Notes: generated by a model from the letters alone, not told the origin. Counted from the stretch's first letter, positions 1,507 to 60,927 are shown. The stretch: DNA of 64,000 bases from Calditrichales bacterium (GCA_015493745.1 WGCN01000013.1:10733-74732), one strand, 5' to 3'. Translations and numbers: made by a program.

Positions 1507-2457
1507 CTAATCCAAAGTGCCGGTCAAACTGATCCTGTGCGTGCCTCCCAAAAGGTCATAATCGGAATAGGCATAATCAAAGCGGAAGTTATTGTAATAC
1601 AATGCCAAACCACCGGAAACGCCACCAAATTGTGTGCCGCGCAGTTCATCGCTCAGGTCACGGTTCAAGGCGTTGTCATAGCCCAGGCGGAAGCGCAGGT
1701 TCTCACTCAGCTTAAACTCACCACCGACGGAGAAACGCTTAATGTAGTCACCAAAACTTTCAACGGGATCGGCCAGGCGATTAAGGCTCAGGGCAATGGT
1801 TAGCGGTAAATGGGCCAGCTCCTTGGAAAAGCCCAGCCGTATATCCAGCGGCAGCCTGTCCTTTACATTTCCATAATACTCAAAATTGGTTCCCAGGTTG
1901 TTAACCGCAACTCCCAGACGGATACCCTCATCATAGGGTACCTGCCATAACAGACCGAAATCAAGCGCAACGGCGGAAGCATTGTAGGATTCGATCTGGG
2001 AAAAAATATATTTAAGGGTAACGCCATAACTCAACCCTTTTTGCAACATATCCGAAAGACTGAGATTCAGACTGACATCATTGGCGGAAAAGGTATTGCC
2101 GGTTTCACGGGCAAAGCTGTTGGTTTCTTTAAATTCACCGTAATTTATATAGCTGATCAGGGCACTGACCACGCCCAGCCCTTCAATACGTTGCGTATAG
2201 CCGGCCAGCCCGCCGTTGATATCCAGCAGATATTTATTGACGGCAAAGGTATATTGCGGCTTTTCACTCAGGGCCATTCCCGCCGGATTGACAAGCATCG
2301 TACCCACATCATTGGAAAAGGTAACAAAAGCGCCACCCGTGGCCACCGTACGCGGATAAAAATCGGTACGTAAAAATTCAAAGGAACGGGTCAGCGGCGT
2401 TCCGGCATGAGCGGAAGTGATTATGAGCAGCAGTCCTGCCATCAGGTATTTTTTCAT
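1507..2457 (-). CDS. PorV/PorQ-family outer-membrane beta-barrel protein (paralogue 1 of 4)
   Basis: 316 aa. Signal peptide MKKYLMAGLLLIITSAHA. N-terminal GGAF...D...NPAGMA motif shared with ORFs 7735, 41336 and 62181. Alternating beta-strand pattern throughout. ATGA overlap with the murI stop (2454-2457). Confidence 0.7.
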   Translation of the reverse strand: MKKYLMAGLLLIITSAHAGTPLTRSFEFLRTDFYPRTVATGGAFVTFSNDVGTMLVNPAGMALSEKPQYTFAVNKYLLDINGGLAGYTQRIEGLGVVSALISYINYGEFKETNSFARETGNTFSANDVSLNLSLSDMLQKGLSYGVTLKYIFSQIESYNASAVALDFGLLWQVPYDEGIRLGVAVNNLGTNFEYYGNVKDRLPLDIRLGFSKELAHLPLTIALSLNRLADPVESFGDYIKRFSVGGEFKLSENLRFRLGYDNALNRDLSDELRGTQFGGVSGGLALYYNNFRFDYAYSDYDLLGGTHRISLTGTLD

Positions 2458-5022: not shown

Positions 5023-5928
5023 ATGTCAATACTCGATGTTTCGCATATTTCTAAAAGCTATGGTGATCACAAGGCCGTCGATGATATTTCTTTTTCCCTG
5101 GAAAAGGGTTCTGTTTATGGAATTCTAGGCCCAAACGGTGCCGGTAAAACGACGACCATTCGCATGGTCATGAATATTATCATTCCCGATTCCGGAGATA
5201 TAAACCTTTTTGGCCAAAAACTCTCCGAGGATTTAAAGAACCGTATCGGTTATTTACCGGAGGAGCGTGGCTTATATCCTAAAATGAAAGTGATTGATAT
5301 GCTTGTTTTTCTCGGTGAACTTCACCTTATGAAAAACTCAGAAGCTTTCAACAAGGCCACCAGCTGGCTCGGCCGTCTGGGCCTGAAAGAACATGCGAAC
5401 AAAAAAGTTGAAGAATTGTCAAAAGGGATGCAACAAAAAGTGCAGATTATCGGCAGTCTTCTTCATGATCCCGATCTGATCATTCTCGATGAACCCTTTT
5501 CCGGCCTGGACCCCGTTAACACAAATTTGATTAAAGATATTATTTTAGAGATGAAAGCCAGCGGCAAGGCGATTATGTTAAGCACACATATGATGGAAGC
5601 CGCCGAAAAACTATGTGATCAGATTATGATGATAAACCATGGTCATATTGTTTTGGAGGGTGCCTTACAGCCTGTCCTCGAGGCGCACGGTACCAGTTCT
5701 ATTCAGGTGGAATACACAGGCAACGCCGGTTTTGTCCGTGAACTGCCCATGGTTGAAACAGCCGATATTTACAGTAACTATTTTGAAGTCCGTTTAAAGG
5801 ATCATCAAAACCGGAACATGTTTATCGAAGAGTTAATAAAAAAAATTGACATCCACTCCTTCAAAACCATGCAATCCAGCCTTAATGAAATTTTTATACG
5901 CTTAGCCGGAGAAACACCTAATGAATAA
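5023..5928 (+). CDS. ABC transporter ATP-binding protein (ABC-2/NatA-like)
   Basis: 301 aa. Walker A GPNGAGKTT, signature LSKGMQQK, Walker B LIILDEP. AGGAG 6 nt upstream of the ATG. Confidence 0.9.
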   Translation: MSILDVSHISKSYGDHKAVDDISFSLEKGSVYGILGPNGAGKTTTIRMVMNIIIPDSGDINLFGQKLSEDLKNRIGYLPEERGLYPKMKVIDMLVFLGELHLMKNSEAFNKATSWLGRLGLKEHANKKVEELSKGMQQKVQIIGSLLHDPDLIILDEPFSGLDPVNTNLIKDIILEMKASGKAIMLSTHMMEAAEKLCDQIMMINHGHIVLEGALQPVLEAHGTSSIQVEYTGNAGFVRELPMVETADIYSNYFEVRLKDHQNRNMFIEELIKKIDIHSFKTMQSSLNEIFIRLAGETPNE

Positions 5929-7186
5929 GATAATAACCATCATAAAAAGAGAGTATAAAGAAACCGTTTTAAAAAAGGGATTTATCATTCTGACACTTCT
6001 CATTCCGGTGTTGATGATCGGTTTTACCATAGTGCCCGCACTTTTGGTACAGATGGAGACCGATACACCTTCAACCATCAGCGTTGTTGATGACAGCGGT
6101 TTAATCGGCGCTGCTTTGCAGAGTACATTAAATGACACACTTAAAAACGGTCAACCCAAATTTATCTTCAATGTTATTCACCCCGGCGGTAAACCGGAAG
6201 ATGTCCTTTCCTCACAAAAAGCCTTAATCGAAAAGGAAGTCATCGATGGCTTTTTATATATCCCGGTAAATGTAGCCGACAGCAACCGGATTGAATATTA
6301 TGCCCGAAATGTCAGTGATTTTCAAACGAACCGGACTCTTAAGAATGCCGTGGAAAAAATCATTATCGATCAACGTTTAAAAAGCAGCGGTTTTGATCCG
6401 GCCATTGTACAGGAGCTTACTCATGATATAAAGCTGCGTACCATTAAAATACAAAAGGGTGGCAAGGAAACCGATGCCGATTTTTCCAGCGAATATTTTT
6501 CTACATTTATTTTCGTTTTAATACTCTACATGACTTTAATTATGTATGGTAATAGTATTATGAGGTCTATAATACAGGAAAAAACAAATAAGGTTGTGGA
6601 AGTTATTCTTTCCAGTGTCAAACCGATTCAACTTATGGCCGGCAAAATATTGGGGCAGGGTCTTGTTGGACTGACACAGTATTTTATTTGGGTTCTTGTC
6701 GGTCTTGTATTAACCCTGAGCGGTGGCTCTCTGATCCAGATTGAGGGAAATAATCTGCTAAACTTCTCCGCCGGTACGCTGATATGGTTTATTATTTATT
6801 ATGTCCTGGGATACTTTTTATATTCCGCCATGTACTCCATCGTTGGCGTGGCAACCACCACCGATCAGGAGGCACAACAGGCTTCCATGCCCATTACCCT
6901 GCTACTCGTGGTTCCCTTGCTGGTTTTAACCACCCTTGTTAAAAATCCCGATAGCAGCCTTATTATTGGCTTGTCCTATGTGCCTTTTTTCTCTCCCATC
7001 ATCATGTTTGCCCGTATCAACATGAGCAGCCCCGCCCCCATGGAGCTTATACTTTCCCTGCTTATTCTGGTAGGAACGATTATCTTCATGATCTGGCTGG
7101 CGGCCAAGGTTTATCGTATGGGCATTTTAATGACCGGAAAAAGGGCCAATTTACCGGAGATTATGCGCTGGATACGCGCCAGGTAA
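5921..7186 (+). CDS. ABC-2 type transporter permease (NatB-like)
   Basis: 421 aa. One N-terminal TM helix, a large extracytoplasmic loop, then about 5 C-terminal TM helices. 8-nt overlap with the ATPase gene. Confidence 0.85.
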   Translation: MNKIITIIKREYKETVLKKGFIILTLLIPVLMIGFTIVPALLVQMETDTPSTISVVDDSGLIGAALQSTLNDTLKNGQPKFIFNVIHPGGKPEDVLSSQKALIEKEVIDGFLYIPVNVADSNRIEYYARNVSDFQTNRTLKNAVEKIIIDQRLKSSGFDPAIVQELTHDIKLRTIKIQKGGKETDADFSSEYFSTFIFVLILYMTLIMYGNSIMRSIIQEKTNKVVEVILSSVKPIQLMAGKILGQGLVGLTQYFIWVLVGLVLTLSGGSLIQIEGNNLLNFSAGTLIWFIIYYVLGYFLYSAMYSIVGVATTTDQEAQQASMPITLLLVVPLLVLTTLVKNPDSSLIIGLSYVPFFSPIIMFARINMSSPAPMELILSLLILVGTIIFMIWLAAKVYRMGILMTGKRANLPEIMRWIRAR

Positions 7187-7250: not shown

Positions 7251-7684
7251 ACTTATACCTATTAGCTTTCTTAGGAAAAGGATCTGAATTGTTCAGGTAG
7301 AGTATTTGTCATAAAATTACCCCGATCGAATAAATGTTACTCCTCATTTCTAATGATTAATAAGTCCTCCCTGGTCCATAATGGCATGAAAATTAAGGCA
7401 GTACTATCTTTTTCTTCCGATATTATTGTCCGCAGTTTAATACCATGATTATCCGCCTGAAAATAAAAAAATCAACAGTTTTATAAAGATTTAACATAAA
7501 ACTCTCTGAGAGCTGAGTTTCCGGATACATGGTGAGTAAAAAATATATATAACAGTAATCAATCATCCGTTTTATGACCAAGATTCTGGTTTTCGACGAT
7601 AGCAAGCGGTTTTTACAACAGGCAAGAGAAATTGATGCAAAAAATTAGAGACAATGGATTTAAACAAATTGGTTTATGAAAGGC

Positions 7685-7718
7685 AAAAAAAAAAAGCCCC
7701 GGAGTTCCGGGGCTTTTT
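7685..7718 (-). terminator. rho-independent (bidirectional) terminator downstream of the PorV-like gene 7735..8772
   Basis: A11 tract (7685-7695), then stem GCCCCGGA/TCCGGGGC (7696-7713), then T5. On the minus strand the hairpin is followed by a U11 run. Confidence 0.75.
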
Positions 7719-7734
7719 AGTTTTAAGCGGATAC

Positions 7735-8772
7735 TTAGAAGCTGACTTTAATGGAGAACAAATTGTTTCCGTCAAAGTATTGCGAATCACGATAGGAATA
7801 ATCGAGGTTCAGTTTCACATCACCGAGAGTGTAGTTAAAACCACCACCCAGGGTAAAGCGATACAGTTGAGCTTCCGCATCAAGGTCCGTTGCATAAATA
7901 TAACCGCCACGCAGGGCCACCATGTTATTCCAAATATACTCACCGCCAAAACGGAAGTTATCGGAACCATAGTTATAGTTGTTAAAATTGGTGAACAATG
8001 TCAAAGCATTTTCATTGTCAATGCTTACGGCATAGGACATACCAATTTCAAAACTACCCGGCAGGTTGTCAATTTGAGCTTCCCGGTTCAGGAAGTCGGA
8101 GAAAGTAGCCCCGTCAACTTCTACGGCCTGCTTATTTAAGCCACTACCGCTGTATTGAAGTGAGGAACCGATATTACGCATAACCACACCAAAGGAAAGG
8201 CCTTCAAAGCCAGCCAGGTTGGCATATTGAATACCTGCGTCAAAGGCAATAGCCGTTGCGCCGGCACGATCAATACTTTCACTGATGACCTTGGCCGTTA
8301 CACCAACCTGAATAACATCCGTTAAACGGTTAGCATAAGTTAATCCCAGGGTGAAGAAGGTCGGCGAGAAAGTACCACCACCTGCTCCGTCCGGGTCGGT
8401 TACTGTCGTTACAGGAATATCACCGAAATCAAATGCTTTCAGAGATACACCAATGTTACCAAAACCACCCATATTGGCACCAATGGCCATGTAGTTAACG
8501 GCAACATCATTAAAGATATTCATGGTTGAGAAAACACCCGAAGCGTTTCCACTCATGTTAGACAAACCGGCGGGATTCCAGGAAATTCCGTCGATGCCCT
8601 CTACCGTAGAGATATTCGCCCCTGCCATGGCAAGGTAGCGCGCACCTACCGGTACTACTGTTTGCATACCGCCTGCTGTACCATAACGGGCGGGATCCCC
8701 GGCAAAGCTTAGCTGTATGGCCAGTAAACTAAACAGTATAATTTTAGATATTTTTTTAAAATTATTTATCAT
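7735..8772 (-). CDS. PorV/PorQ-family outer-membrane beta-barrel protein (paralogue 2 of 4)
   Basis: 345 aa. Signal peptide ...LLAIQLSFA. Motif GARYLAMAGANISTVEGIDGISWNPAGLS. C-terminal ...LFSIKVSF (aromatic terminus). AGGAG 7 nt upstream of the ATG. Confidence 0.75.
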   Translation of the reverse strand: MINNFKKISKIILFSLLAIQLSFAGDPARYGTAGGMQTVVPVGARYLAMAGANISTVEGIDGISWNPAGLSNMSGNASGVFSTMNIFNDVAVNYMAIGANMGGFGNIGVSLKAFDFGDIPVTTVTDPDGAGGGTFSPTFFTLGLTYANRLTDVIQVGVTAKVISESIDRAGATAIAFDAGIQYANLAGFEGLSFGVVMRNIGSSLQYSGSGLNKQAVEVDGATFSDFLNREAQIDNLPGSFEIGMSYAVSIDNENALTLFTNFNNYNYGSDNFRFGGEYIWNNMVALRGGYIYATDLDAEAQLYRFTLGGGFNYTLGDVKLNLDYSYRDSQYFDGNNLFSIKVSF

Positions 8773-8817
8773 TTCTGACTCCTTTTAAGACTCTCACTTT
8801 ATATAAACAAACCATTT

Positions 8818-11800
8818 TTAGAAGAACTCCAGTTGTTGTCTTCTTTGAATAATAAACAGTTTGAGTACCTTAGTTGCGCTACTGCCATCCGAAAGAGTCA
8901 TATCAACATGAGCAAAATACATACCGCTGGCCACAGGCAGGGCATTGTCATTCCGCAGATCCCATTTCAGGAACTGACTCGTGTTGTTAGACGGTGTTTC
9001 CAGCTTACGTACCTGCTCACCGGCGAGGTTAAAGATACGAATAGTAGCTTTTTTCGGCACATGATAGAAGGTTACGAATCTATCAAAGCGGCCGGATTCC
9101 TGAGAGTTGCCCGCATAATAGGGATTCGGGAATACAGTAACTTTATCAGCGTCTTCTCTTTCCAGGGCAATGGACTGTTCCACAGCCGGAGCATCAAAGA
9201 CGAACTTATCAGCGGCGGAGTTTACGTGATTGGCGTATACGTTAAACTCAAACGGGGCCAACAGATAACTACGCGTACCACGGGCTTGCGGCCAGATGGC
9301 ATAAAGCACATCGGCTATGGGACCCCAGTTTACGTTGTCATAGTCGGCACCTTCATTATAGTCGCTGTTCATGATAAAGGTATATTCACGTCCACCCAGA
9401 TCGGCAAAGTTTGAGTCGTTTATAGCCCAGCCCATATCCCAGAGCAGGTTGGCGTTACCGTTACTGGCATCCTCTACGAAACAAACGTTGATTTGACGAG
9501 GCGGATCCTGTTCCATGTCAAAAGCGGCAAAGGGCATATCGCCAATACCACCGGCAGGATAACCCAGGTCGCGACGGTAAGTTTGGCCCTTGGACCATCT
9601 GTCGGGGAACTGAGTCTTACTGGCAGCCACAACATCAGCGGTAGGACGTCCCACAGCGCTTCCTGTTGTATCGGCAGCCCAGAACAGGGTTACATTGGTA
9701 TATTCGGTCGGATCGGTGATGGTACTGCCAAAGAAATTGGCACCGAGATCCATACCGCCGAAGAAATATCCACCGCCCCAGTTAACGCCGGAGAACCAAC
9801 GGTTACCGGTGTAATCCCAGTCATTGATGCCCGGAGGAGGTCCAAAGACCTTTACTTGCAGACCATCAACGATCGGTGCATCATTACCTGTAGCACCGCT
9901 CGGATACTGCAATTGACCGTCAAGTACTGTTGTTTGGGTAGTGGAATCTCTTAATCCCCAAACGGTTTCACCGTAATTGGCGGAATTGGTATCTGTTTCG
10001 GTATAGAAAAATACGCTGTAGGTATGACCGGTCGTTTTGGCCGGGTCAACCACGACGATTTCCACGGAACCGTCACTCACCCCTTCGTGCGATACGGCCA
10101 GGGTGGAACCTGCTTTTCCTTCAACACGCTTACCGGGAGACGGTGACTGTGTTTGAACAGGAATAACGATCAGGGAAGACTCGAGAGCCTTATCCTGAAT
10201 CAGTTGCGGATCCGGGTTGTAGTTGTAAGCGGTTACCGCAAAATAATAGGTATTTCCGGGGAACAACGCTTCGCCGGTCAGATAGTTTTTATCAACAACA
10301 AAATAGCGTTTAACGCCGTTGTCTTTACCAAACTGTACCGGTACGGTTTTTGTAGTTCCATATTCTTCAAGGAACTTGGGTTGTTCAATGGTGGTCACAC
10401 CATCAACAAGGTCAAAAGTACCGATCAGCTGTGTTTTTGCATCCAAACCAAAGCTAAGCTGATAAACATTGTATCCCTGGAATGAATATTCCGTGGAATC
10501 ACTATCAGCATACTTTGTGTTTTCGGTGCGGCTCACAGCTTCGGCATCATCACCCCAGCTCAGAACGATGGTATTCTCAAAAGGACTGGCCACAACCTGC
10601 GGCGCGGGAGGCGCTTTGGGAATAGTGGCAAACAGATCATCATACAGTTTTTGAGCCAGTTTATCAGTTTCTTTAACCTGTACAACAGAGTTAATGTAGT
10701 CGGAACCGCTACCACCGATAACGGCAACAACGATTTCCTGCTCATCTCCGGGAGCCATGGTGAAAGGTCCGGTGGAAAGGCTCATACGGCGGTCAGCGGG
10801 GGCAAAGTTGGCGCCTTGACCGTCCAGATCACCGGTTCCCGTGGCGGGATCACCGTCAAGCGGGAACTTTGTTACCTCACCGGTTGCGCGATGGGTGAAC
10901 GGTGTGGGGTTATCAACCTCCGTATTGGTAATAAAACCACGCAGCAGGTTATACCACTCAAGAGTACCATTATAGTTACCCAGTTGGGGATCACTCCACT
11001 CGGTGTTACCGGCGGAGAAATAACCAAAAGAGGTCATCGGGATGTTTACTTTACCCGGTCCTACTTTTTTCAGATTGAAAACGGCATAATCCTCGGCATC
11101 GTCAATACCATTGTGGTTGATGTCCTGACCGGCAACGCCGTCTACGATGGGGCCTTGAAAAAAGTCATAACCCATGGCGGAAGGTGCCACGCCAAAACGA
11201 TCAAATTCATCATCATTCGGGCCGCCATTATAGGCAAAACCTAAGCCAAGATCAGGGTCACAACCTACAAGGTCGTCTGTATAGTTACCCACATCCGGGT
11301 CGCACCACTGTGCCACATACATGCTGTCAAAGGTAACATCGGACTTGTTGATCAATTTATATTTTTTGAACATCAATTGTCCCAGGCGGGCGTCTTTTTG
11401 GTTGTAGCCCCACATGGTTACCTGAAGCTCGATACCCATGGGATCGGAACCATACAACTGGGTTGTACGTCCGGCGTCGGAGTCGTCAACGACAAAGAAT
11501 ACGACCTGATCGGCGCTGGCGATACCGGGATAATCCCCTTTATTGGGATCGGCCATGCCATTCTCATCGAGAACAGGATCATAGGCGCCGTTATCATTTA
11601 CGTCAATATAAGGAGCACCTTCGGCTACCGGCCAGTTTTTCCAATCCAGCTTATATTGCTCGATGATCTGGTCGGCCTGTTCTTCCGTAACGGACTCCAG
11701 AGGCACTTCGAAAAACTCGGAAGCGTCCTCTTTTACCTGGGCACGCGTCAACGAAGCCCAGTCGGAACGGATACGATAGATTTGATCAAAAACAGCCGCG

Positions 11801-12153
11801 GTACCGGTTCGATAGGTAGAACCCCCTACCTGAATACGAGTGCCTGTACCATCAGCATTGGGAACCAAGGCCCCCCAAACCACGCCATCTTCATAGATCA
11901 CGTTGGATGTTCCACGGGGATAAATACCGCCGCCATTGCCATTGGGATCGATACCGGATTTACCGTCATAGTAAAGCCAGTAGGCCCAGTTATTAATATT
12001 AGACAAGGTACGGGTCGGGTTCAACGCGGACGTTTTATAAAAACTCTGCGTACTCCGAGCATTCTCGGGCCCCTTCGCGTACAGGGAGCCTATTGTTATC
12101 AATAAGAACAGGCTCATTATTAGAATAGTAAAATTCAATGATTTTCGGTTCAT
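8818..12153 (-). CDS. large secreted protein of unknown function with T9SS type-A-like C-terminal sorting domain
   Basis: 1111 aa. Signal peptide (…LLITIGSLYA). No catalytic motif recognised. The C-terminal ~100 aa (VTVFPNPYYAGNS...ATIRIFNLAGEQV...ASGMYFAHVDM...KLFIIQ) fit the CTD/FlgD-Ig pattern. 34 nt after the TonB-dependent receptor gene and 45 nt before the PorV-like gene. Confidence 0.8.
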   Translation of the reverse strand: MNRKSLNFTILIMSLFLLITIGSLYAKGPENARSTQSFYKTSALNPTRTLSNINNWAYWLYYDGKSGIDPNGNGGGIYPRGTSNVIYEDGVVWGALVPNADGTGTRIQVGGSTYRTGTAAVFDQIYRIRSDWASLTRAQVKEDASEFFEVPLESVTEEQADQIIEQYKLDWKNWPVAEGAPYIDVNDNGAYDPVLDENGMADPNKGDYPGIASADQVVFFVVDDSDAGRTTQLYGSDPMGIELQVTMWGYNQKDARLGQLMFKKYKLINKSDVTFDSMYVAQWCDPDVGNYTDDLVGCDPDLGLGFAYNGGPNDDEFDRFGVAPSAMGYDFFQGPIVDGVAGQDINHNGIDDAEDYAVFNLKKVGPGKVNIPMTSFGYFSAGNTEWSDPQLGNYNGTLEWYNLLRGFITNTEVDNPTPFTHRATGEVTKFPLDGDPATGTGDLDGQGANFAPADRRMSLSTGPFTMAPGDEQEIVVAVIGGSGSDYINSVVQVKETDKLAQKLYDDLFATIPKAPPAPQVVASPFENTIVLSWGDDAEAVSRTENTKYADSDSTEYSFQGYNVYQLSFGLDAKTQLIGTFDLVDGVTTIEQPKFLEEYGTTKTVPVQFGKDNGVKRYFVVDKNYLTGEALFPGNTYYFAVTAYNYNPDPQLIQDKALESSLIVIPVQTQSPSPGKRVEGKAGSTLAVSHEGVSDGSVEIVVVDPAKTTGHTYSVFFYTETDTNSANYGETVWGLRDSTTQTTVLDGQLQYPSGATGNDAPIVDGLQVKVFGPPPGINDWDYTGNRWFSGVNWGGGYFFGGMDLGANFFGSTITDPTEYTNVTLFWAADTTGSAVGRPTADVVAASKTQFPDRWSKGQTYRRDLGYPAGGIGDMPFAAFDMEQDPPRQINVCFVEDASNGNANLLWDMGWAINDSNFADLGGREYTFIMNSDYNEGADYDNVNWGPIADVLYAIWPQARGTRSYLLAPFEFNVYANHVNSAADKFVFDAPAVEQSIALEREDADKVTVFPNPYYAGNSQESGRFDRFVTFYHVPKKATIRIFNLAGEQVRKLETPSNNTSQFLKWDLRNDNALPVASGMYFAHVDMTLSDGSSATKVLKLFIIQRRQQLEFF

Positions 12154-12187
12154 TTGTTACCTCACAATTAGTTTACATCTACTCTTC

Positions 12188-15163
12188 TTAGTAGGTAAGT
12201 TTTACGCCGAAGAAAATTTGCCGCGGCTGACCAAACAGCTCAAGGCCTAGCTGACTACGATAAGCACCGCCGTTATCCAAAACGATGGCCTGATACATAT
12301 CGCGGTACTGAGGACCGAGTTGCTCAATATTTTGGCCGGACAATTCCGGGTTAGTTAAATAACCATCATCCGTGGCGCTGCCTGTTTTCTGATAAACATT
12401 GATAACGTTTTTAGTGTTAAACAGATTATTTATACGTACATAAAATGTAGCGTCAATCTGATCGGTAACATTAAGGGTTTTATCCAGGCGTAAGTCCGTA
12501 ACAAAATTCCAGGGAGTTGTCGAGCTGTTCAGCGGTTCCAGAGCGGAACGGGAACGTGTATCGGACATGTAATCCACACCGGCGGTGTAAGGATCAACCT
12601 GTCCACCCGGAGGGGCTGTTACGAGAGTATAAGGGTGACCGGAATTGAAGGTAAAGAGCAGATTGGCTCCAAAGTTTTCCAAAACAGGTCCGCCATCACC
12701 CTTGCCAAAACGATAATCTAGGTTAATGGAACCGCGATGACGCTGAGCGTAATCCAGCGGCGACAGGATCGTCGGCAGATTGGCGTCGCGCTCGGCGGCG
12801 GAGATAAAGGAAGTACTACCGGAACCGGTACCTTCGGCATCGGTGTAGGTATAGTTAAACTGAGCCTGCAAACGCTGATAACGGCGCAGGGTCATTTTAA
12901 ATTCAAGACCTTTGGTTGTGGCAAAGTCACCATTTACAAGACGGTTATAAACCTGACTTGCGGCATCTCTATTCGGCTTTTGACGAACCGTCTGAACCTG
13001 ACCCTTGATATTACGATAGAAACCGGTAATATCAAAAGCGGCATAGTCGGACAACTGACGACGGAAACCCACTTCATAGTTGGTGGTACGAACCGGATCC
13101 AGACCAAAACCGACGGCACGCAGAGCAAAACCGCCCACGGTAATAATGTTACTGGCGGTTCTTTCACTGGTGTAAATCTGGTTCAGGCTGGGCATCTGGG
13201 CAAATTTACCGTATTGCAGATAGAATACGGTTTTCTCATCCACGGGGAAGGAGAAACCCAAACGCGGGCTAACCAGAACGAAAGGATCCATGTCCCTCCA
13301 CTCACTGGCCAGAATCTGACTGGTATTCTTATCAAATTTAACATCAGCCGGGTCACGCAGACGGCGGTCATCGGGATCAAAATAATCCAAACGCAGACCG
13401 GCATTGATGATCAGATCATCATACTCGATTTTATCCTGCAGGTATAAAGCGCCAAATATGGGCTTTTTCGGGGCCAGGGCCACGCTACCGTCGGAATAGG
13501 TTTTGGCATCATCAATGCTATTGCCATAAATATCATAACCATAGGAGTCAACGCCACCGTTTTGGTTCCAGACATTGACCGGTACATTATTAACGCCACC
13601 GTAAGTGGTAATACCAAACCTGTTACCATAGGACGGATCGGCCGCGAAGAGCATTACACTGGGAGCGATATCAAAATAGCGTACCGTATAGGCCTTAACC
13701 TCGGCACCGGCTTTGATCTCATGGTGACGACCCAACTGGGAAGTCAGATTAAACGAACCGGAAAAATAACTTTGATCCAGTTTTCTGTAGAAATTACTAG
13801 GGGCTCCTTTTCTGGAGAAAGGAATACCATTAAGAACATAGTTAAAGTCAGGACGCCAGGCATCGCGATAGGTAGCGCCATGGGCGGCTACTTTAGAGCT
13901 GTCATACCAGGACATCCAGTCATTACCCAGATAGCTGTCACCACGCTCAATCGTGGAACTGAAAGCACCCAAATTCACTTCATAGAAGGTGGTCGGGGAA
14001 AGGATATGCGTCATCTTAGCCGATACCAGGTAAGAATTCAGATCGTCATATACTTCGCGGTCGCGAAGAATGTTCAGCCAGGGGGCCCCATCCGTATAAG
14101 TTCTACGGGTATTAAAGGCGCCGGAAACACGAAAGTTGATCGGATTAAAATCAAAACTGATCGTTCCGTTTAACGCATAACGGTTGCTTTGATTTCGGGG
14201 GGTAAAACCATCCGGATAACTGAGATTAACCGTATCCGTTCTGGTTCTGTTCGGGTTGGCGTCTATAAGGTTGTTAAAGGTAAAGCCTTTGCCAAAACGT
14301 ACTTCGTCATCACCCTGAAAGTAGTTTTCACCGGCGATATAGAATTTAATCTTATCACCCATGATCGGCCCGCTTAATGTAACAACGCCGATTCTGTGCT
14401 GATAGGAGTAGGTATCAAGGAATTTTTCACCTTCGGCGGCAAATCCATCCAACTGATAGTCAAGAGAAGCACGGAAATCGCTGGTACCGGACTTTAACTG
14501 GGTACGGATAATACCGGAGTTGGCACCGCCAAACTCGGCACTGTATCCACCGGTCAAAACCTGAGTTTCCTCCACAGCATCCTGAATGATGTATACAGCG
14601 TTTGTGTTGGACAAGGCGCTGGAAGTGGAAGCTCCGTCGAGATAATACCCAACTTCATCGGAACGGCCGCCACGAATGTGAACAACACCGTCCTGAACAA
14701 CCACACTGGGCTGCAGGGCCAGGAAATTATTCAAACCGCGAACGGGAATACTTTCCAAATCCTTCGAGGTGATCAATGAATAACTTTGGGTAACGTTTTT
14801 TTCCACCAGGGGACGTTCACTGACAACAACAACGGCATCTGTTTCCAGTACCTGCTGGCTCAGTTCGAAATCCACGTTGGTGGTAACACCCGCCGAGACA
14901 CGGACGCCTTCTTTAATCACGTCCTGATAGCCAACGTAGTTGGCGCGTATTTTATAAGTAGCAACCGGTACGTTGAGAACGACATAATAACCATCCACGT
15001 CGGTCATGGCTCCCAGGGAAGTTCCCTCAAGAATCACGTTCACGCCGACCAACGGCTCACCGGTATCCTTATCCTGGATAAAGCCGGTAATTTTACCTGA
15101 TGATTGCGCGAAAAGCGACAATGGAATAGTTATAAATAAAAACAGAAGTAACCTTCTTAACAT
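12188..15163 (-). CDS. TonB-dependent receptor with N-terminal carboxypeptidase-regulatory-like domain (SusC/RagA-style architecture)
   Basis: 991 aa. Signal peptide. CarboxypepD_reg-like segment GKITGFIQDKDTGEPLVGVNVILEGTSLGAMTDVDGYYVV...YKIRANYVGY. Plug region VEKNVTQSYSLITSKDLESIPVRGLNNFLALQPSV. Long barrel ending FFGVKLTY. AGGAGG 5 nt upstream of the ATG. Confidence 0.9.
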   Translation of the reverse strand: MLRRLLLFLFITIPLSLFAQSSGKITGFIQDKDTGEPLVGVNVILEGTSLGAMTDVDGYYVVLNVPVATYKIRANYVGYQDVIKEGVRVSAGVTTNVDFELSQQVLETDAVVVVSERPLVEKNVTQSYSLITSKDLESIPVRGLNNFLALQPSVVVQDGVVHIRGGRSDEVGYYLDGASTSSALSNTNAVYIIQDAVEETQVLTGGYSAEFGGANSGIIRTQLKSGTSDFRASLDYQLDGFAAEGEKFLDTYSYQHRIGVVTLSGPIMGDKIKFYIAGENYFQGDDEVRFGKGFTFNNLIDANPNRTRTDTVNLSYPDGFTPRNQSNRYALNGTISFDFNPINFRVSGAFNTRRTYTDGAPWLNILRDREVYDDLNSYLVSAKMTHILSPTTFYEVNLGAFSSTIERGDSYLGNDWMSWYDSSKVAAHGATYRDAWRPDFNYVLNGIPFSRKGAPSNFYRKLDQSYFSGSFNLTSQLGRHHEIKAGAEVKAYTVRYFDIAPSVMLFAADPSYGNRFGITTYGGVNNVPVNVWNQNGGVDSYGYDIYGNSIDDAKTYSDGSVALAPKKPIFGALYLQDKIEYDDLIINAGLRLDYFDPDDRRLRDPADVKFDKNTSQILASEWRDMDPFVLVSPRLGFSFPVDEKTVFYLQYGKFAQMPSLNQIYTSERTASNIITVGGFALRAVGFGLDPVRTTNYEVGFRRQLSDYAAFDITGFYRNIKGQVQTVRQKPNRDAASQVYNRLVNGDFATTKGLEFKMTLRRYQRLQAQFNYTYTDAEGTGSGSTSFISAAERDANLPTILSPLDYAQRHRGSINLDYRFGKGDGGPVLENFGANLLFTFNSGHPYTLVTAPPGGQVDPYTAGVDYMSDTRSRSALEPLNSSTTPWNFVTDLRLDKTLNVTDQIDATFYVRINNLFNTKNVINVYQKTGSATDDGYLTNPELSGQNIEQLGPQYRDMYQAIVLDNGGAYRSQLGLELFGQPRQIFFGVKLTY

Positions 15164-15345
15164 ATCTACCTCCTATATGGGTTATTAGACAAAGACGAGA
15201 AAACAACAGATTTACCTTTACCTCATAGAAGCCCTCCTGTGAGTATATTTTCAAAATGAATTATGTATAATATTGGTTAGGTACATTGGGGGGAAGATTC
15301 CCAATGATTGTGCAAGGTAAGGGTTTTAACTAAGTATGTCAAATG

Positions 15346-15360
15346 ATTTCAGCGCCTCTT
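15346..15360. repeat. direct repeat copy 1 (ATTTCAG-CGCCTCTT) in the receptor upstream region
   Basis: 15 nt identical to 15534-15550 apart from a 2-nt GG insertion in the other copy. A GC-rich core in an AT-rich spacer. On the minus strand it sits immediately upstream of a TTGACA hexamer. Confidence 0.6.
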
Positions 15361-15533
15361 TACAAAATTGAGGCAATCACTTTATTTTTTCTAAATTATT
15401 GATTTTTAAAGTATAATTTACATACAAAATATTGACATTTTTTAGCTCTTTTCCGCTTATAACCCTGTAAAATAAAGCCATTTTTATTCCTCTACATAAT
15501 AAAACCGGACAAAAAACACCTTTATAGCGAATA

Positions 15534-15550
15534 ATTTCAGGGCGCCTCTT
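15534..15550. repeat. direct repeat copy 2 (ATTTCAGGGCGCCTCTT)
   Basis: See copy 1. Lies about 190 nt further upstream relative to the minus-strand receptor gene, next to a CCTTTA/TAAAGG hairpin (15551-15567). Confidence 0.6.
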
Positions 15551-15569
15551 CCTTTAAACAATAAAGGAC

Positions 15570-15597
15570 AAAAAAAAAGCGGCTTAAGAAAACCGCT
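15570..15597 (-). terminator. rho-independent terminator after lipoprotein gene 15616..16173
   Basis: Minus-strand RNA AGCGGUUU-UCUU-AAGCCGCU forms an 8-bp stem (one G-U) with a tetraloop, followed by U9. Confidence 0.65.
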
Positions 15598-15615
15598 TTT
15601 AATTTTTAACTGTCT

Positions 15616-16197: not shown

Positions 16198-19100
16198 TTA
16201 GCGTACCAACAGCATTTTTCTGGAAATTCGCGTATTACCCGCCTGAAGGGTATACACATACAATCCGCTGGCCACCTGCCGTCCCTGGTGGTTGATTCCT
16301 TTCCACTGAACGGTGTAAAAACCGGCATCCTGCACCCCATTCACCAGAGTAGTGATTTCACGACCCAGCATATTATAGACGGTTACCTTAACCTGAGCGG
16401 TCGACGGAATTTGATAACGGATCGTTGTCGTAGGATTAAACGGGTTCGGGAAATTCTGCTCCAGATTAAAAGTTTCGGGAACGGCAACGGCATCCGGGTT
16501 ATAAAAAACCGCGTACTGTCCATATCCGGGAAGCAAAGCCTCCACCCGGCCGTTATTTCCATAACCGCCGACATACTGCCAGTCCCCGCTCACATATTGA
16601 TAGACCCCGATCCGGCCTTCCTCAAAGTCGCCGAACTCTTCGGAAATACTCTGTACCGCGGCATCATCATAAGTGAAAGGCAGGGAAAGGACTCCTGTCA
16701 GTCCGGCATTGCCGTCGATATTTAAAATTTCACCCAGGCGTATCATATCCCCCTCATCCGCATTGGCGGAAGCTGCCAACTGCGTCAGCCGGTCGGAAAA
16801 AGAGGTCACCACATATCCGGGCGAAGCCACGGAAGAGGCGCTGATACGAACAGGCTCCCTTCCGTCAGGCAGGGAAATACTCTGCACACCTGTTTTGGTC
16901 AGCGAGGATATGGCGTAGGTTTCAACCAATTCGCTGGTCGCGCCAAACTGATTCCTGGCCGAAACGGTTACTTTTAAACTGCCGGTATCTTTTAATTTAT
17001 ATTTTGTGGCATACACAAAACTTGAGCTTCCTATGTAGCTCATCAGGTCATTTGACGCTACCTTTGTACCGTCGCCCTTAGTCAGTTCATAACTGATCTC
17101 CGGGTTTACGCCAAGCTTGATATCGCTCACCAGGTAAGATCGCAGGTTTGCCTTAACCACCTCGGCGGCCAGCATCCCCAAGGCTATATCCGGTGAGGCC
17201 GTCGAGTTTATGGTTACGCTCCTGCTGTTTTCACGTACTTTTCCGTTTTTATAGGCTAAAAGGGATATTTTCACCTTGCCGCTCAACGTTTTCGGTGTAG
17301 GGACGGTAAATACCGTATCCACCGTCGCCTTTACCGACCCAACCACGGCCAGTTTATTTGTCCCGGCCCAAATCACGGTGGAGTCGGAGGCAAAGCGCAT
17401 CTTTAAGGAGAACTTTATATCTCCGTCGGAGTCCTGTGTAATGGAAGAAATCAAGGGCGCGTAGGGCTTATCCTCCGTCAATTGCGGAATGGTTATCGAC
17501 CAGACTCCCCGGCCATGGGTAGCCACCACGATCTGATCCTCAACCTCCTTTAACTGCCATATTGAAGCCGCCGGCATACCATAATCGGCAAAATGCCAAC
17601 TGGCCCCGCCGTCGGTGGTTTCAAAAAGCCCGATCTCCGTACCGGCCCACATCATATCCGTGTCAAAGGGCATAACCAACAGGTCGTATACCGCCACATT
17701 GGGAAAGCCGGCCGTGGAAACGCCGTTGGAATACCCGGAGATATCAATCCACGTTTGTCCCAAATCCGTGGTTTTCAGGATTTTGGGCGCATTGTCAAAG
17801 GAGAACATGACATAGGCGGTTGAATCGGAAACAGGATCCGTGGACATGCCACTGATCCGCCCCAGGGTAATGCCGGCATAATTATTTACCGGCTGAAAGG
17901 TCTCTCCTTCATCGGTGGAAACAAATATCCTGCCGGTGGAGCTCATACGATCACCGGCCCATACAATATTCGGATTAACCTTGGACACTTTCACATTGGA
18001 AAAGCTGCCTCCTGCCGTCCAGGCCTCATTCTCGATCACCTTGGTCACCCAGGTCTTGCCAAAATTCGTGGATTTATAAACACCCCGTGATGAAACGGCA
18101 AAAAGCATATCCGGCTTAATCTGTGAACCGGTTATTTTTGTGATAAACGGATCGGTATTGGAAGAACCGCGATTGGAGACACTCCAGGTTTTTCCTCCAT
18201 CCACGGAACGTTCCAGGTTGCCAAACTGCCAACTGCCGATCATTTTTTTAGGATCATTAAAATGCCATACCACATTAAAACCATCGGCGTTGACCGAGAA
18301 TTGTCCGTAGTTCCACTCGGAACTGCTGTCGGGGTCTTCGTTGGAATACCAGGTGCCGTTATCCTGAGCACCGGCCAGGTAGGCATTGGCTCCCGGCTTT
18401 TTATCCACACCGTAATACTGGGTGGAATTTATGCCGACAGTTCGAACCCAGCGCGCATCCAGGGTGGTGGCATAGGCTACGCCGCCGTCATTGGCATTGA
18501 TCAGCCCATAGCTGCCGTCCGTGTTTTTAAAAGCTTTCAGGTTATGATGATCCACATGAGCCCCATGAGCCTGTGAGAAATTTTCCGCCAGACGTGTGAC
18601 GGAAGAATTGACCACTTCGCCATAAAGTATTTGCAGATTGGCTTCCGAAGAAGGAAGGTTGTCATTATCAAAAGGGGTGGAGCCCGGTGATACCGGCCAG
18701 TAAAAATAAAGCAGTTTATCCAGATGGCCGCCGTTCCGGGCTATGTTCTCGTTGGGATTTTGCGCGTCATAGGTATAACCGCTGATAAAGACATACTGCC
18801 GGGTTTCAAGATCGTTGGAATAGTTAAAGACGCTGTCCCGATCCTGATCACGAAAGGAGACCATCAGCTGACGATTGTTGGTAATATCCCAGGCCTCAAA
18901 GGGAATATCGACATAATCGACATAGGTATACTGGGAAGTCGGTACGCCGGAGGTGGAACCTTCCGGCACGGTAAAACGGTGCGCTTTTTGTCCTTTTCCG
19001 GGACCAAAACGCAGTTCAACGGAAACGAAATCGGAATCGGCCAGGCTAGGCGCGTTCTCATCCTTACCGTCTGAGTAATAAAAACCGTTGAAATTTTTAT

Positions 19101-20478
19101 TGCTAAAGTTGACCGTATTTAAAAAGTCAGTGGTATTATTGCGTATTATGTCATACACCTTGGATTCACGGGTGACCACCAGTGCCGTATCGGTCAGATT
19201 GATGGTGTAAACCTGAACTCCGCCCACATAAAGTTTAAACTTGTTTTCCGGGTCCACCATGATGGTGTTATCATACCATCCTTGTCCGTTCAGCCAGTCG
19301 GGATCGCTGCCGCTGTCCTTGGCCAGGGCCCAGCTGCTGCCGGCATCAAAACTTACATACAGTACGGAATTATTGCTGCCCCCTTCGGCGGCGGCATACA
19401 CCAGGTTGGTGTCCTGCTCCGTCATGGCCAGTTCCAGTCGTCCGCCCAAATCGGCCAGTGATCCGGCCACCACTTCCCAGCTTTCCCCGGCATCCAGTGA
19501 TCTTATAATACCCACACCGTTTACGGAGGCGAACTGCGTTTTAAAGTTAAGTGGATTGGCTATCAGGTGCTGGATGCGGGCATTGGTTCCGTGGGTATAT
19601 TTCTGTTCCCAATTCAAACCACCGTCAACCGACTTCATAATTACCGAACGATAATCCGAAGTATAGATACCGCCATTGGAGCAAATCAATACCACATCGG
19701 GATTGTCGGGGTCTACAATCACCCGGTTAATATTTACAAATTGGGGATTTTCTGTCGTCGAACTCAGCAGCTTCCAGCTTTCACCGCCATCGGTGGATTT
19801 CAGAACACCGTTTCCATTTATCTGATCCGTGTTAAAAAAGCCTTCACCCGTACCGGCGTAAATGATATCCGGGTTTGAGGCCGGCTGGGCAAAATAGGAG
19901 ATAGCCAGCAGGGGCAGGTCTTCGGTTTTGGCCTTCCAGGTTTGTCCGGCATCCGTGCTTTTCCAGATACCGCCCCCAACCGTACCGGCCAGCCAGGTAT
20001 TGTTGGTCGGGTCACCGGCATCTACAAGCAGGCCGCGTGTTCTGCCCGGCACATTACTGGGGCCCCTCTCTACAAACTGCAATGATGAGAATGCCGTTTT
20101 TTTGAAAGTTCGGGGGTTCTGTTTTTGGGCCTCCAGGGCCTTATCCAGGGCGCGTAAACGGTAATTCAATCCATAGCCCGGATTCTCTTCTCCCTCGCGG
20201 GTACGGATGTCATGATAAAATTTTGCAAACATATCCGGACGGTTGGTTTTTATTTTTCCGGCACGCAGCTTTTCCAGCTTCTGAATATGGTTTTGTAAAA
20301 CCGCCCAATCGGCCGTTCCCCGCCTGGTCTGTTTCAATTCGGCTTTTAAAACCACAATCTGTTCAGTCAAACTCTGGGCAGCCGTGGTTTTTTCCGTAAA
20401 CGGATCATCAAGCAGCCAGTAGCCGCTGCCAAGACCGATAGCTATTAAAGCCAAAAGATAAAATGTTTTACGCAACAT
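16198..20478 (-). CDS. BNR/Asp-box repeat (sortilin/Vps10- or Ycf48-like beta-propeller) protein with T9SS type-A C-terminal domain
   Basis: 1426 aa. About 10 Asp-boxes ([80 protein letters not shown]). Canonical CTD [22 protein letters not shown]...[25 protein letters not shown]. N-terminal hydrophobic anchor plus a coiled-coil-like segment. Confidence 0.85.
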   Translation of the reverse strand: [1426 protein letters not shown]

Positions 20479-20668
20479 TATTCCCCCTTATTGTAATTCA
20501 ATCGTTTTAGCGCTTACCATCTCTAGATAAACGCTTATTATTTTTATTTATTTCTATCTCTATACGGTTTGTCACAATCATACTCCCGGTATTTTAACAC
20601 ATCGGGGGCTCCACTTCACGGGTACAAATCAAAATAAAGAAACTTTTAAACAAAATTATCCATAAACA

Positions 20669-20710
20669 TAAAAAAAGAACAAACCTCCTCGGACATAGCC
20701 CGAAAAGAAG
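20669..20710 (-). terminator. possible rho-independent terminator after the metalloprotease gene
   Basis: Minus-strand CUUCUUUUCGG...CCGAGGAGG forms a stem of about 9 bp including 3 G-U pairs, followed by UUUGUUCUUUUUUU. A weak stem. Confidence 0.35.
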
Positions 20711-20712
20711 TT

Positions 20713-38200: not shown

Positions 38201-38424
38201 TTAAAATCATAGGCATCGGTAACGGCGGGGTAAATCTCCTCGATGATCCTGGCCGCTTTAAAAGCCGTTCGTTCCGTGCCCTGATGATAATGCACCGTAA
38301 AGTGTTCCGTATCAAAGGAGCGCCATTCCAGCTCGGGGTGATTATATTGGTCATAAAGCTGGGCCCGGGCGGTTCCGCCTAAAAAGGCGAGTAACAGAAG
38401 AAGAGGAAGAAGGCGTTTTATCAT
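35278..38424 (-). CDS. multidomain envelope protein: gluzincin-like HExxH region, TolB-type (PD40) beta-propeller repeats and a C-terminal beta-barrel-like region
   Basis: 1048 aa. Signal peptide. VLTHEFTHMV...WFAEGTAQ. PD40-like repeats (WSPDGRYLVYA, FGPDGRSIAFVS, WRPDGRRIVFG, YSPDGQWLYYA). The last ~400 aa are rich in alternating aromatic beta-strands. The start codon overlaps the stop of the upstream gene at 38424. Confidence 0.8.
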   Translation of the reverse strand: MIKRLLPLLLLLAFLGGTARAQLYDQYNHPELEWRSFDTEHFTVHYHQGTERTAFKAARIIEEIYPAVTDAYDFKPKDKLHLILRDTDDYSNGGAFFFNNKVEIWATNLDYVMRGTKNWLRDVLTHEFTHMVNIQKIIKSSMTFPYGFIQWFGYEKERRKDVVRGFPNVLVSYPVSSVNMPVWFAEGTAQHQNDKARYDYRDPHREMILRDRVLYNRLLTLNEMSIFGKTSHGNESSYNQGFSFVNFLVEQYGEKVLSDITEIDSHWSSYTFDGAIEEATGTPVDSLYQRWKRQLWQRYTRQTESIRAHEVKGRLIEKEGFANLYPVFDPAGGRVAWVSNKGRDYFSQNRILLWDRKTGDKKELPVRGVSSSLSWSPDGRYLVYARQDRNRHMSSLNDLYLWDTEKEREIRLSYGLRGSNPSFGPDGRSIAFVSSTDGLHALNVLHLPGDMEGNAWLEVAFDVTTGKLLKHKAKTIYQRDVRVRADELKQLLAFEDGRQIYHPRWRPDGRRIVFGTAVEYGRNIGRYDMDSGEFSLLLQAEEELRYPVYSPDGQWLYYAASTTGIYNIYRLRHNNGKPELLTNVTGGAFMPSVNPAGELVYACYDSIGYKLAFMENPHPLDKTLARYDENYPASVPEKNFNDDVIPVYQTRPYKTTFTRTQILPRLFIDYGTIKPGFYVTSSDVLDQLSLVAGVSANKDLDYDLYAYAEYKKLAPTFFAEFYNSSANIKDTLELDRGYVVRGVRNVGFNLLQYSFGVSYIPLEKMHLSLTYTGSRYSAQLDPLTLNTPTDGLLYVPTIRYDYLRGQALHFKLILDRLGEDRYAAVNPSSGYYLFFKYGYEDNDFLQGFSTNRQLGLEEFKRYSFNSLEFNGELYLANPWLEQHALGISLKSGYIDRPVASFFNYFAGGLIGLKGYPFYSIEGRQKLIGALNYRFPISRGLNWRLGHLRFDKLFAGLFFEAGNAFNETRVDFRDFKRDVGMELRLDTYSYNMFPTRIFVQAAWPLDVARNGPVTYPREWRYYMGVLFDFDLRERAAGMRDNTAVRARLR

Positions 38425-41270: not shown

Positions 41271-41299
41271 GCGGTTTTCGGTATTTCGGTAATATGTGT

Positions 41300-41326
41300 A
41301 AAAAAAGCCCCGTTTACACGGGGCCG
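41300..41326 (-). terminator. rho-independent terminator between the PorV-like gene and the M6-like gene
   Basis: Minus strand has stem GCCCCG-UGUAAA-CGGGGC followed by U7, 10 nt after the PorV-like stop. Only about 30 nt remain before the next ATG (41270). Confidence 0.65.
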
Positions 41327-41335
41327 GGTATTTTT

Positions 41336-59683: not shown

Positions 59684-59713
59684 TGCGACCTCCTAAACAT
59701 GATAGAGACGTTT

Positions 59714-60859: not shown

Positions 60860-60927
60860 TCAAGACTCCTACAGTCTTTTTTAAGCATAAAGGTGAAAAA
60901 TTTAAACAAAAACCTCGTAATAAGAAA

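Follow-up and report, generated by a model that had tools for sequence, protein, structure and literature searches.

In the attachment complex of Porphyromonas gingivalis, a barrel of the PorV/PorQ family is paired with a single type IX secretion system (T9SS) cargo protein: PorZ keeps its C-terminal sorting domain and sits by it on PorQ, and PorU does likewise on PorV, the domain presumably remaining on the barrel without being cleaved (PMC10202324). For type B cargo, the anchors are cognate PorP/SprF barrels of adjacent genes, as in the SprB-SprF pair of Flavobacterium johnsoniae, where the PorV-like barrel encoded next to the cargo is the proposed anchor, and a review has proposed that cognate PorV-like barrels shield sorting domains from cleavage and hold certain type A ones (PMC10202324). 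T9SS substrates are recognised at the translocon by a cognate carrier protein (PMC10994853). Among TonB-dependent transporters, ~28% have an N-terminal extension, a plug and a barrel, including the Oar class, whose Myxococcus xanthus member Oar is implicated in protein secretion (PMC6434023). SusC and RagA of Bacteroidota share this architecture, with a large barrel, and their genes are followed directly by that of a surface-exposed partner, SusD or RagB, a helical lipoprotein of ~550 aa. In Neisseria, the conserved TonB-dependent transporters TbpA and LbpA are encoded beside much more variable surface capture proteins, TbpB and LbpB; TbpB is a lipoprotein, and its ligand is transferrin. We analysed a 64,000-nucleotide stretch of a Calditrichales bacterium genome (GCA_015493745.1, WGCN01000013.1:10733-74732; the whole stretch is called the window here) that holds a triad of genes for a TonB-dependent transporter (the receptor), a large secreted protein of 1111 aa (BIG) and a 345-aa PorV-like barrel (PorVL).

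The triad resembles a T9SS cargo and cognate barrel pair combined with a TonB-dependent transporter and its surface partner. As in PorQ-PorZ and PorV-PorU, a PorV/PorQ-family barrel accompanies one cargo, and the BIG sorting domain is closest to those of PorZ and PorU; however, PorVL is neither PorQ nor PorV, BIG is unrelated to PorZ and PorU outside the sorting domain and carries an extra conserved aromatic tail, and the genes form an operon with a TonB-dependent transporter. The adjacency of a cargo and its own barrel is shared with SprB-SprF, but the BIG sorting domain appears to be a type A variant, PorVL is of the PorV/PorQ family, and a transporter is part of the unit. Compared with SusC/SusD and RagA/RagB, the partner that follows the receptor is all-beta and 1111 aa long, the receptor fails the SusC/RagA family model, the proposed route of BIG to the surface is T9SS export with a barrel anchor rather than lipidation, and a third gene is always present. 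The likeness to the Neisseria systems lies in a conserved transporter encoded beside a more variable surface protein, the difference being that variation in the triad sits in a discrete swapped cassette. The likeness to Oar is one of architecture; Oar has neither a T9SS cargo nor a PorV-like partner. Searches of a paper library on T9SS, PorV-like barrels, TonB-dependent receptors and the phyla concerned found no description of the triad, nor does it figure in the genome paper of Caldithrix abyssi. The triad is built around a large protein family without description. It seems to join a surface partner to a TonB-dependent transporter in a new manner, and we give an even chance to a model in which T9SS-exported BIG, held on PorVL by an uncleaved sorting domain, is the capture partner of the transporter.

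Conservation of the triad

An earlier reading of this DNA, made from the sequence alone, had described a three-gene unit of a SusC-style receptor, a 1111-aa protein with a T9SS C-terminal sorting domain and a PorV-family barrel, closed by a strong terminator. Its coordinates and intergenic gaps (34 nt between the receptor and BIG, 45 nt between BIG and PorVL) were borne out, and all three genes are on the minus strand (Table 1). A stem of 12 bp followed by a T run does lie behind the barrel gene (7718..7691), and a second terminator precedes the triad; since there are terminators on both sides, the three genes are bracketed as a unit. Relative to a Calditrichia metagenome-assembled genome (MAG; locus L004), the closest relative found, the ratio of nonsynonymous to synonymous substitution rates (dN/dS) was 0.034 for the receptor, 0.021 for PorVL and 0.038 for BIG residues 1-660, at dS of 0.6-0.95. 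The open reading frames (ORFs) of the triad are real genes under strong purifying selection.

Scanning a single genome from each species gave at least 560 loci that encode BIG relatives, in Calditrichota, Neomarinimicrobiota, Latescibacterota, Ignavibacteriota, Bacteroidota, Delongbacteria, Fidelibacterota, Handelsmanbacteria and others. When the ORFs of 82 fetched loci were searched with the three window proteins, receptor, BIG and PorVL were, in this order, immediate neighbours on one strand with small gaps for 50 of the 55 BIG genes that had enough sequence on both sides. In another two the receptor is split by a frameshift; of the remaining three, two are additional BIG paralogs of Caldithrix-type loci and the third is an orphan (L066). 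An orthologous receptor lies immediately upstream of 57 of the 65 BIG genes with enough upstream sequence, at 590-2195 bits. The triad is conserved over hundreds of species and at least six phyla in the Fibrobacteres-Chlorobi-Bacteroidetes (FCB) group. The sequence-only reading had staked its interpretation on such conservation, and the gene order is kept throughout these phyla.

Genes outside the triad vary completely from locus to locus, and in this window they are unrelated housekeeping genes. The triad is an autonomous core-genome module. This self-contained outer-membrane unit is widespread in Calditrichota and other FCB phyla, and the locus described here is one copy of it. In two loci from Ignavibacteriales and Ignavibacteria MAGs (L047, L082), a second triad, receptor followed by BIG, starts right after the barrel gene of the first; the module can therefore be tandemly duplicated.

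The BIG sorting domain and its barrel

PorVL passes the PorV/PorQ family model (Table 1), so the family placement made from sequence holds; it is not PorV itself (NF033710, 62.6 bits vs a cut-off of 250), and PorQ proper was likewise rejected (NF033711, 78.4 bits vs 220). A profile of PorVL orthologs matched PorV in the PDB (6h3i_F, 1.8e-20), and CymD (0.006) was the only other sequence at E <= 0.01. A near-canonical PorV and a near-canonical PorQ are both encoded elsewhere in the window, each just under the cut-off of its own model, and PorVL is about equally distant from the two (~32 bits each). PorVL is therefore a third, dedicated paralog.

The window's PorQ gene lies ~5 kb downstream of the triad, past amidase and glutamate racemase genes. 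A Calditrichaceae MAG (L084) likewise has the triad followed by amidase, racemase and a PorQ-like gene, and then by Obg. Between the triad and the amidase gene, the window has genes for a GldA-like ABC ATPase and an ABC-2 permease, with no counterpart at that place in L084.

The sorting domain of BIG is probably a type A variant. Its nearest relatives are the PorZ and PorU sorting domains, by weak model matches, and PorZ (5m11) was its top profile match in the PDB. It has an FPNPYY (PNP) motif and conserved lysines K1095 and K1098; across the BIG family, PF18962 was found in 14 of 38 members, some of them relatives with canonical tails. A type B assignment was rejected, as the window protein has no CHU_C match (PF13585 / TIGR04131) and its barrel scores in the PorV/PorQ family; weak CHU_C matches occur in 5 of the 38 relatives. 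The T9SS sorting domain ascribed to BIG by the earlier reading is probably a PorZ/PorU-like type A variant, although its score falls below the TIGR04183 cut-off.

BIG extends eight residues past the point where the window's three other sorting-domain proteins end. This extension is held in register: among 114 close homologs, position -14 is K in 113, position -9 is Q in 111, and the last two residues are aromatic in 113 (-1) and 106 (-2), giving the terminal pattern [QE]-[IV]-[LVI]-x-[YF]-[YF]-COOH. It is missing from relatives that share the BIG N-terminal domain and have canonical tails (...RKMxLLK). In six loci encoding such relatives (L086, L087/L088, L089, L090, L091, L092), the receptor and PorVL were adjacent in none. 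Because canonical-tail loci are without the partners in six of six cases and the two unpartnered Caldithrix-type paralogs have degenerate tails, the variant sorting domain, PorVL and the receptor travel together. This strengthens the earlier proposal of a dedicated barrel for a single cargo, as PorVL is a third paralog and the variant sorting domain is found only where PorVL is present.

Sequence conservation within the triad was compared as median identity to the window across 48 triads (Table 1). The BIG sorting domain is the second most conserved part, after the receptor plug; ordinary type A sorting domains, in contrast, are reported to be poorly conserved (PMC10994853). The link between sorting domain and barrel has direct comparative support from these sequences, which suggests that PorVL holds BIG. 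A permanent anchor of the PorQ-PorZ type is likelier than the PorV-like shuttle that the earlier reading had in mind.

A different account would make PorVL a FadL-type channel, with the unit importing hydrophobic or amphipathic compounds and BIG being a capture protein or enzyme, released or loosely attached after normal cleavage of its sorting domain. The PorV family does belong to the FadL-like barrels (PMC12578637), and the PorQ-like neighbour of the triad in L084 gave a faint Toluene_X match. We consider this account quite improbable: PorVL passes the PorV/PorQ model, its ortholog profile matches PorV, with CymD the only other PDB sequence at E <= 0.01, and a channel would leave unexplained both the conserved variant sorting domain with its tail and their absence outside triads.

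Some BIG relatives occur in other arrangements. Relatives of ~1100 aa with ordinary tails are encoded in tandem pairs, with neither a receptor nor a PorV-like barrel, at L089 2442..9339 and L090 3..6818. In Caldithrix abyssi (L001 13072..19375) and in L033 (11840..17393), two extra BIG paralogs follow the barrel gene of the triad. The first lacks a receptor and barrel of its own and has a sorting-domain core of the BIG type with a degenerate tail (...ASEQMH in L001, ...VTGE in L033); the locus ends before the second is complete. These extra paralogs may share the upstream barrel or be decaying.

The receptor

The receptor has the extension and plug domains and the probable barrel listed in Table 1. 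The plug (PF07715) was found in 33 of 34 receptor orthologs. The barrel of the window protein gave no Pfam match at E <= 0.01, and NCBIfam barrel models matched it in part only; among the orthologs, PF00593 was found in 15 of 34 (down to 1.9e-29) and PF25183 in 4 of 34. Profile matches in the PDB were to the N-terminal extension of RagA, the barrel of PhuR and the plug of Cir. A candidate TonB box, placed by position, is the valine-rich DAVVVVSERP (residues 109-118) between the N-terminal extension and the plug, where an AERP consensus is conserved.

Membership of the SusC/RagA family was rejected, as TIGR04056 scored 55.9 bits vs a cut-off of 368.25 and only model positions 2-119, the N-terminal extension, were matched. 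The description of the receptor as SusC-style therefore survives for the general extension, plug and barrel architecture and fails for the family; it is true only loosely, because this architecture is common to such a large share of TonB-dependent transporters. The observation that no SusD follows the receptor was correct, as the next gene encodes BIG, which has no SusD Pfam match and an all-beta model. Across the 50 complete triads, no SusD gene lies between receptor and BIG, and none was called in the five triad loci for which Pfam context is available.

These results bear on whether the triad is a degenerate polysaccharide utilisation locus of the SusC/SusD type that has lost its SusD. The match of the N-terminal extension to those of RagA and SusC would fit such an origin, yet the family model covers the extension alone, no SusD is adjacent in any complete triad, neither carbohydrate-active enzymes (CAZymes) nor regulators are conserved nearby, and an arrangement stable across phyla is not a decay product. 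We regard this origin as extremely improbable.

The transporter could also work outward, or serve as an assembly factor like Myxococcus Oar that helps BIG or PorVL to reach the surface, with no nutrient import. It has the same extension, plug and barrel architecture as Oar (PMC6434023), PF25183 is found in a minority of its orthologs, and no import-related partners are conserved nearby. With the T9SS sorting domain of BIG, and PorV and PorQ encoded in the genome, an export route exists already, however; relatives whose sorting domains are canonical get by without an adjacent transporter, and Oar-type secretion is known from a single example. Such a role appears very improbable.

The BIG protein

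BIG has a signal-peptide-like N terminus without a lipobox cysteine. Searches against Pfam and NCBIfam found no family apart from the weak sorting-domain matches, and a sequence search of the PDB found nothing past the PorZ sorting domain. Among the scored candidates, more than 865 homologs were found at E <= 0.001, in Calditrichota (including Caldithrix abyssi Calab_2073) and Marinimicrobia, annotated only as hypothetical or T9SS sorting-domain proteins.

The AlphaFold2 model of BIG (predicted local distance difference test, pLDDT, and predicted template modelling score, pTM, in Table 1) is almost wholly beta; neither a helical fold like that of SusD nor a catalytic domain can be recognised in it. 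With the full model and with the N-terminal domain, Foldseek against the PDB gave weak partial matches only, to generic Ig/FN3 proteins and to the super-sandwich that forms the non-catalytic N-terminal domain in GH116, GH94, GH65, GH149 and their relatives (TMq 0.24-0.36); the full model also matched PorZ and PorU, most likely via the sorting domain. Against viral structures there were generic FN3 matches only. A super-sandwich glycoside hydrolase (GH116, GH94, GH65, GH15) was rejected for BIG, as the model has no catalytic (alpha/alpha)6 barrel, and the resemblance to glycoside-hydrolase accessory sandwiches is too weak to name BIG a glycan binder. The check that the sequence-only reading had suggested, for a lectin, carbohydrate-binding module or SusD-like fold, thus came back negative with AlphaFold2 and Foldseek; its remark that BIG has no recognisable catalytic motif agrees with the lack of any enzyme-family match in Pfam, NCBIfam, the PDB and Foldseek.

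The N-terminal domain has ~55 invariant columns, including an Asp-rich DPDxGxxxxDxxGxD and a DRR motif. Its family comprises 5845 cluster representatives when the threshold is E <= 1e-3 and 1108 when it is E <= 1e-30, and the domain is at or near the N terminus in almost all full-length matches listed. No Pfam or NCBIfam model covers it.

A replaceable cassette in BIG

In a blastn comparison with L004, window positions 15399..10148 were 88% identical and 9211..7674 were 87% identical, and nothing between them (9212..10147) matched. The encoded proteins are close on either side of this gap: the receptors are 97% identical, the PorVL proteins 96%, BIG residues 1-660 ~95% and the sorting domains ~95%, whereas the ~310-aa cassette (~669-981) is unalignable, at 10-20% identity. 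The pattern recurs among 88 homologs, where many pairs have N-terminal regions 84-96% identical and sorting domains ~90% identical and cassettes without detectable similarity. The cassettes of the fetched loci form three clusters, one found in all phyla and including that of the window, one in Calditrichota only and one in Marinimicrobia and Fidelibacterota only.

Co-variation of the cassette with the receptor or PorVL was rejected. As both partners are near-identical across the cassette swap, a specific contact of the cassette with either is unlikely. The cassette probably faces the environment, and it could set ligand specificity or aid phage evasion.

Longer relatives whose tails are ordinary have BNR/sortilin propellers, or PKD and dockerin modules, in this slot ahead of the sorting domain. 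Superfamily members of 1400-1970 aa with these modules are P0224, P0164 and P0148 (L086, L087), and L087 has a cluster of several BNR and sorting-domain proteins adjoining GH31 and alpha-amylase-like genes.

Proposed mechanism

In the model that we put at an even chance, Sec would take BIG across the inner membrane and the T9SS translocon would take it across the outer one. The variant sorting domain of BIG would remain uncleaved and stay on PorVL, as the PorZ domain does on PorQ and the PorU domain on PorV, so that BIG would be displayed on the surface beside the co-expressed transporter. There it would capture a nutrient, probably a polymer or oligomer, and hand it over for TonB-powered import, functionally replacing SusD or the surface-lipoprotein partner of other TonB-dependent systems. 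The cassette would be the environment-facing variable part.

Several points weigh against this model. The functional link between BIG and the receptor is suggested by gene order, which is nearly invariant across phyla, and retention of the sorting domain by analogy with PorZ and PorU. The sorting domain of the window protein scores just under the TIGR04183 cut-off (21.7 vs 23) and has no PF18962 match, and the contexts of canonical-tail relatives come from a small sample of six loci. BIG has no recognised binding or catalytic fold, its sole structural resemblance being weak (TMq <=0.36). Among the loci with context examined, no inner-membrane transporter, regulator, degradative enzyme or CAZyme is conserved beside the triad, which sets it apart from typical polysaccharide utilisation loci. 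SprA and GldKLMN, core genes of the T9SS, were not in the scanned parts of the window, to which the search was confined.

Part of this evidence would suit a role of PorVL as anchor only, in which BIG is an adhesin, coat protein or enzyme delivered by T9SS and held by its dedicated barrel, the co-transcribed transporter works independently or is only a structural neighbour, and BIG passes no substrate to it. The comparative support lies with the link between sorting domain and PorVL, that between BIG and the receptor being one of gene order; FN3-/Ig-like modules such as those of BIG are typical of adhesins, as a swappable cassette is of surface proteins that undergo diversifying selection, and extra BIG paralogs occur without a receptor of their own (L001, L033). 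We nevertheless judge this role unlikely, as the coupling of the receptor family to BIG is as tight as that of PorVL, both partners are lost together in canonical-tail relatives, and such coupling across phyla would be hard to account for if the genes shared no function.

The capture model can be stated more broadly, and then more tentatively, at somewhat less than an even chance. The triad would be an undescribed, phylum-spanning TonB-dependent uptake machine whose T9SS-delivered capture subunit sits non-covalently on a dedicated PorV-like barrel via a specialised, uncleaved sorting domain; it would be a counterpart of SusCD in FCB bacteria without SusD, with the cassette retuning capture or letting the cell escape phages for which BIG is the receptor.

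Other features of the locus and window

The features of the locus and of its surroundings are collected in Table 1. Shine-Dalgarno-like sequences lie 5' of the start codons of the first (receptor) and third (PorVL) genes of the triad. The leader contains sigma-70-like matches at 15438..15410 and 15269..15242, which are weak evidence of a promoter, and an Rfam scan of the 410-nt leader and the whole unit found no riboswitch or other Rfam family, only terminator artefacts being matched.

Two T9SS cargo genes with ordinary sorting domains lie directly upstream of the triad and are missing from the syntenic position in L084; their products are a BNR/sortilin-propeller protein of 1426 aa and an HExxH metalloprotease-like protein of 734 aa. 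Elsewhere in the window, the PorV gene is followed by that of a 948-aa "T9SS-dependent M6-like inactivated metalloprotease" with a type A sorting domain, and then by that of a 1048-aa TolB-like propeller or peptidase. The M6-like protein beside PorV recalls the porU-porV pairing and might stand in for PorU in this lineage. A further run of ORFs (378, 381, 162, 255 and 330 aa) extends up to the window edge, where a sorting-domain protein is encoded in part; the run's 378-, 381-, 255- and 330-aa ORFs had no Pfam match at E <= 1e-4.

Table 1. Features of the receptor-BIG-PorVL locus and of its surroundings in the window. Identity is the median to the window protein across 48 triads.
Feature	Position (nt)	Strand	Residues	Identity	Evidence or remark
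TonB-dependent transporter (receptor), 991 aa	12188..15163	-			Pfam CarbopepD_reg_2 + Plug
Receptor, N-terminal extension (carboxypeptidase-regulatory-like)	14825..15091	-	25-113	47%	PF13715 6e-18, PF13620 8e-17
Receptor, plug	14513..14800	-	122-217	54%	PF07715 1.5e-8, 35.5 bits vs cut-off 23.9
Receptor, probable beta-barrel	12191..14512	-	218-991	44%	NCBIfam barrel models matched in part, at 688-794
BIG, 1111-aa secreted beta-rich protein, undescribed family	8818..12153	-			AlphaFold2 pLDDT 87, pTM 0.70 (45-sequence alignment)
BIG, N-terminal beta-super-sandwich	10618..12045	-	37-512	47%	AlphaFold2 alone pLDDT 95.3, pTM 0.93
BIG, FN3-like beta-sandwich region	10150..10611	-	~515-668	42%	strand pattern in model; motifs GYNVYQ, YYFAVTAYNY; generic FN3 viral-library matches
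BIG, replaceable cassette (~310 aa)	9211..10149	-	~669-981	40% (669-780), 29% (781-981)	no blastn match to L004 across 9212..10147
BIG, probable variant type A T9SS sorting domain	8821..9159	-	~999-1111	52%	TIGR04183 21.7 bits vs cut-off 23
BIG, C-terminal extension RRQQLEFF (eight residues)	8821..8844	-	1104-1111		fixed register in family
PorVL, 345-aa PorV/PorQ-family outer-membrane barrel	7735..8772	-		43%	NF033709 158.4 bits vs cut-off 90
Leader/promoter region of triad	15164..15574	-			between upstream terminator and receptor start; AGGAGG before receptor ATG
Upstream terminator	15575..15600	-			11-bp stem then T run; ends 185-aa TPR-like (tetratricopeptide repeat) gene; upstream boundary of unit
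Intrinsic terminator closing unit	7691..7718	-			12-bp stem, 7 G-C pairs, then T10; directly 3' of PorVL gene
Near-canonical PorQ	1507..2457	-			NF033711 212.8 bits vs cut-off 220
GldA-like ABC ATPase + ABC-2 permease	5023..7186	+			TIGR03522 214 bits vs cut-off 402 (ATPase)
Two T9SS cargo genes upstream of triad	16198..22917	-			ordinary sorting domains
PorV, M6-like and TolB-like gene run	35278..42430	-			
Near-canonical PorV	41336..42430	-			NF033710 247.9 bits vs cut-off 250
948-aa M6-like protein	38424..41270	-			NF052323 533 bits vs cut-off 600
1048-aa TolB-like propeller or peptidase	35278..38424	-			
ORF run	58547..63919	-			five ORFs
Partial sorting-domain protein	63170..64000				at window edge

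Implications

The BIG N-terminal domain defines a large family without a Pfam or NCBIfam model, and the cassette is a clear modular replacement in a surface protein that may mark a phage-host or substrate-specificity interface. The conserved tail, present only when the barrel is present, provides a sequence signature for testing barrel-held type A sorting domains. If the proposed mechanism is true, it would tie together T9SS cargo handling and TonB-dependent uptake, which have so far been studied separately. The unit is in the core genome of abundant and mostly uncultured Marinimicrobia, Calditrichota, Latescibacterota and Ignavibacteriota, whose acquisition of organic matter is poorly known.

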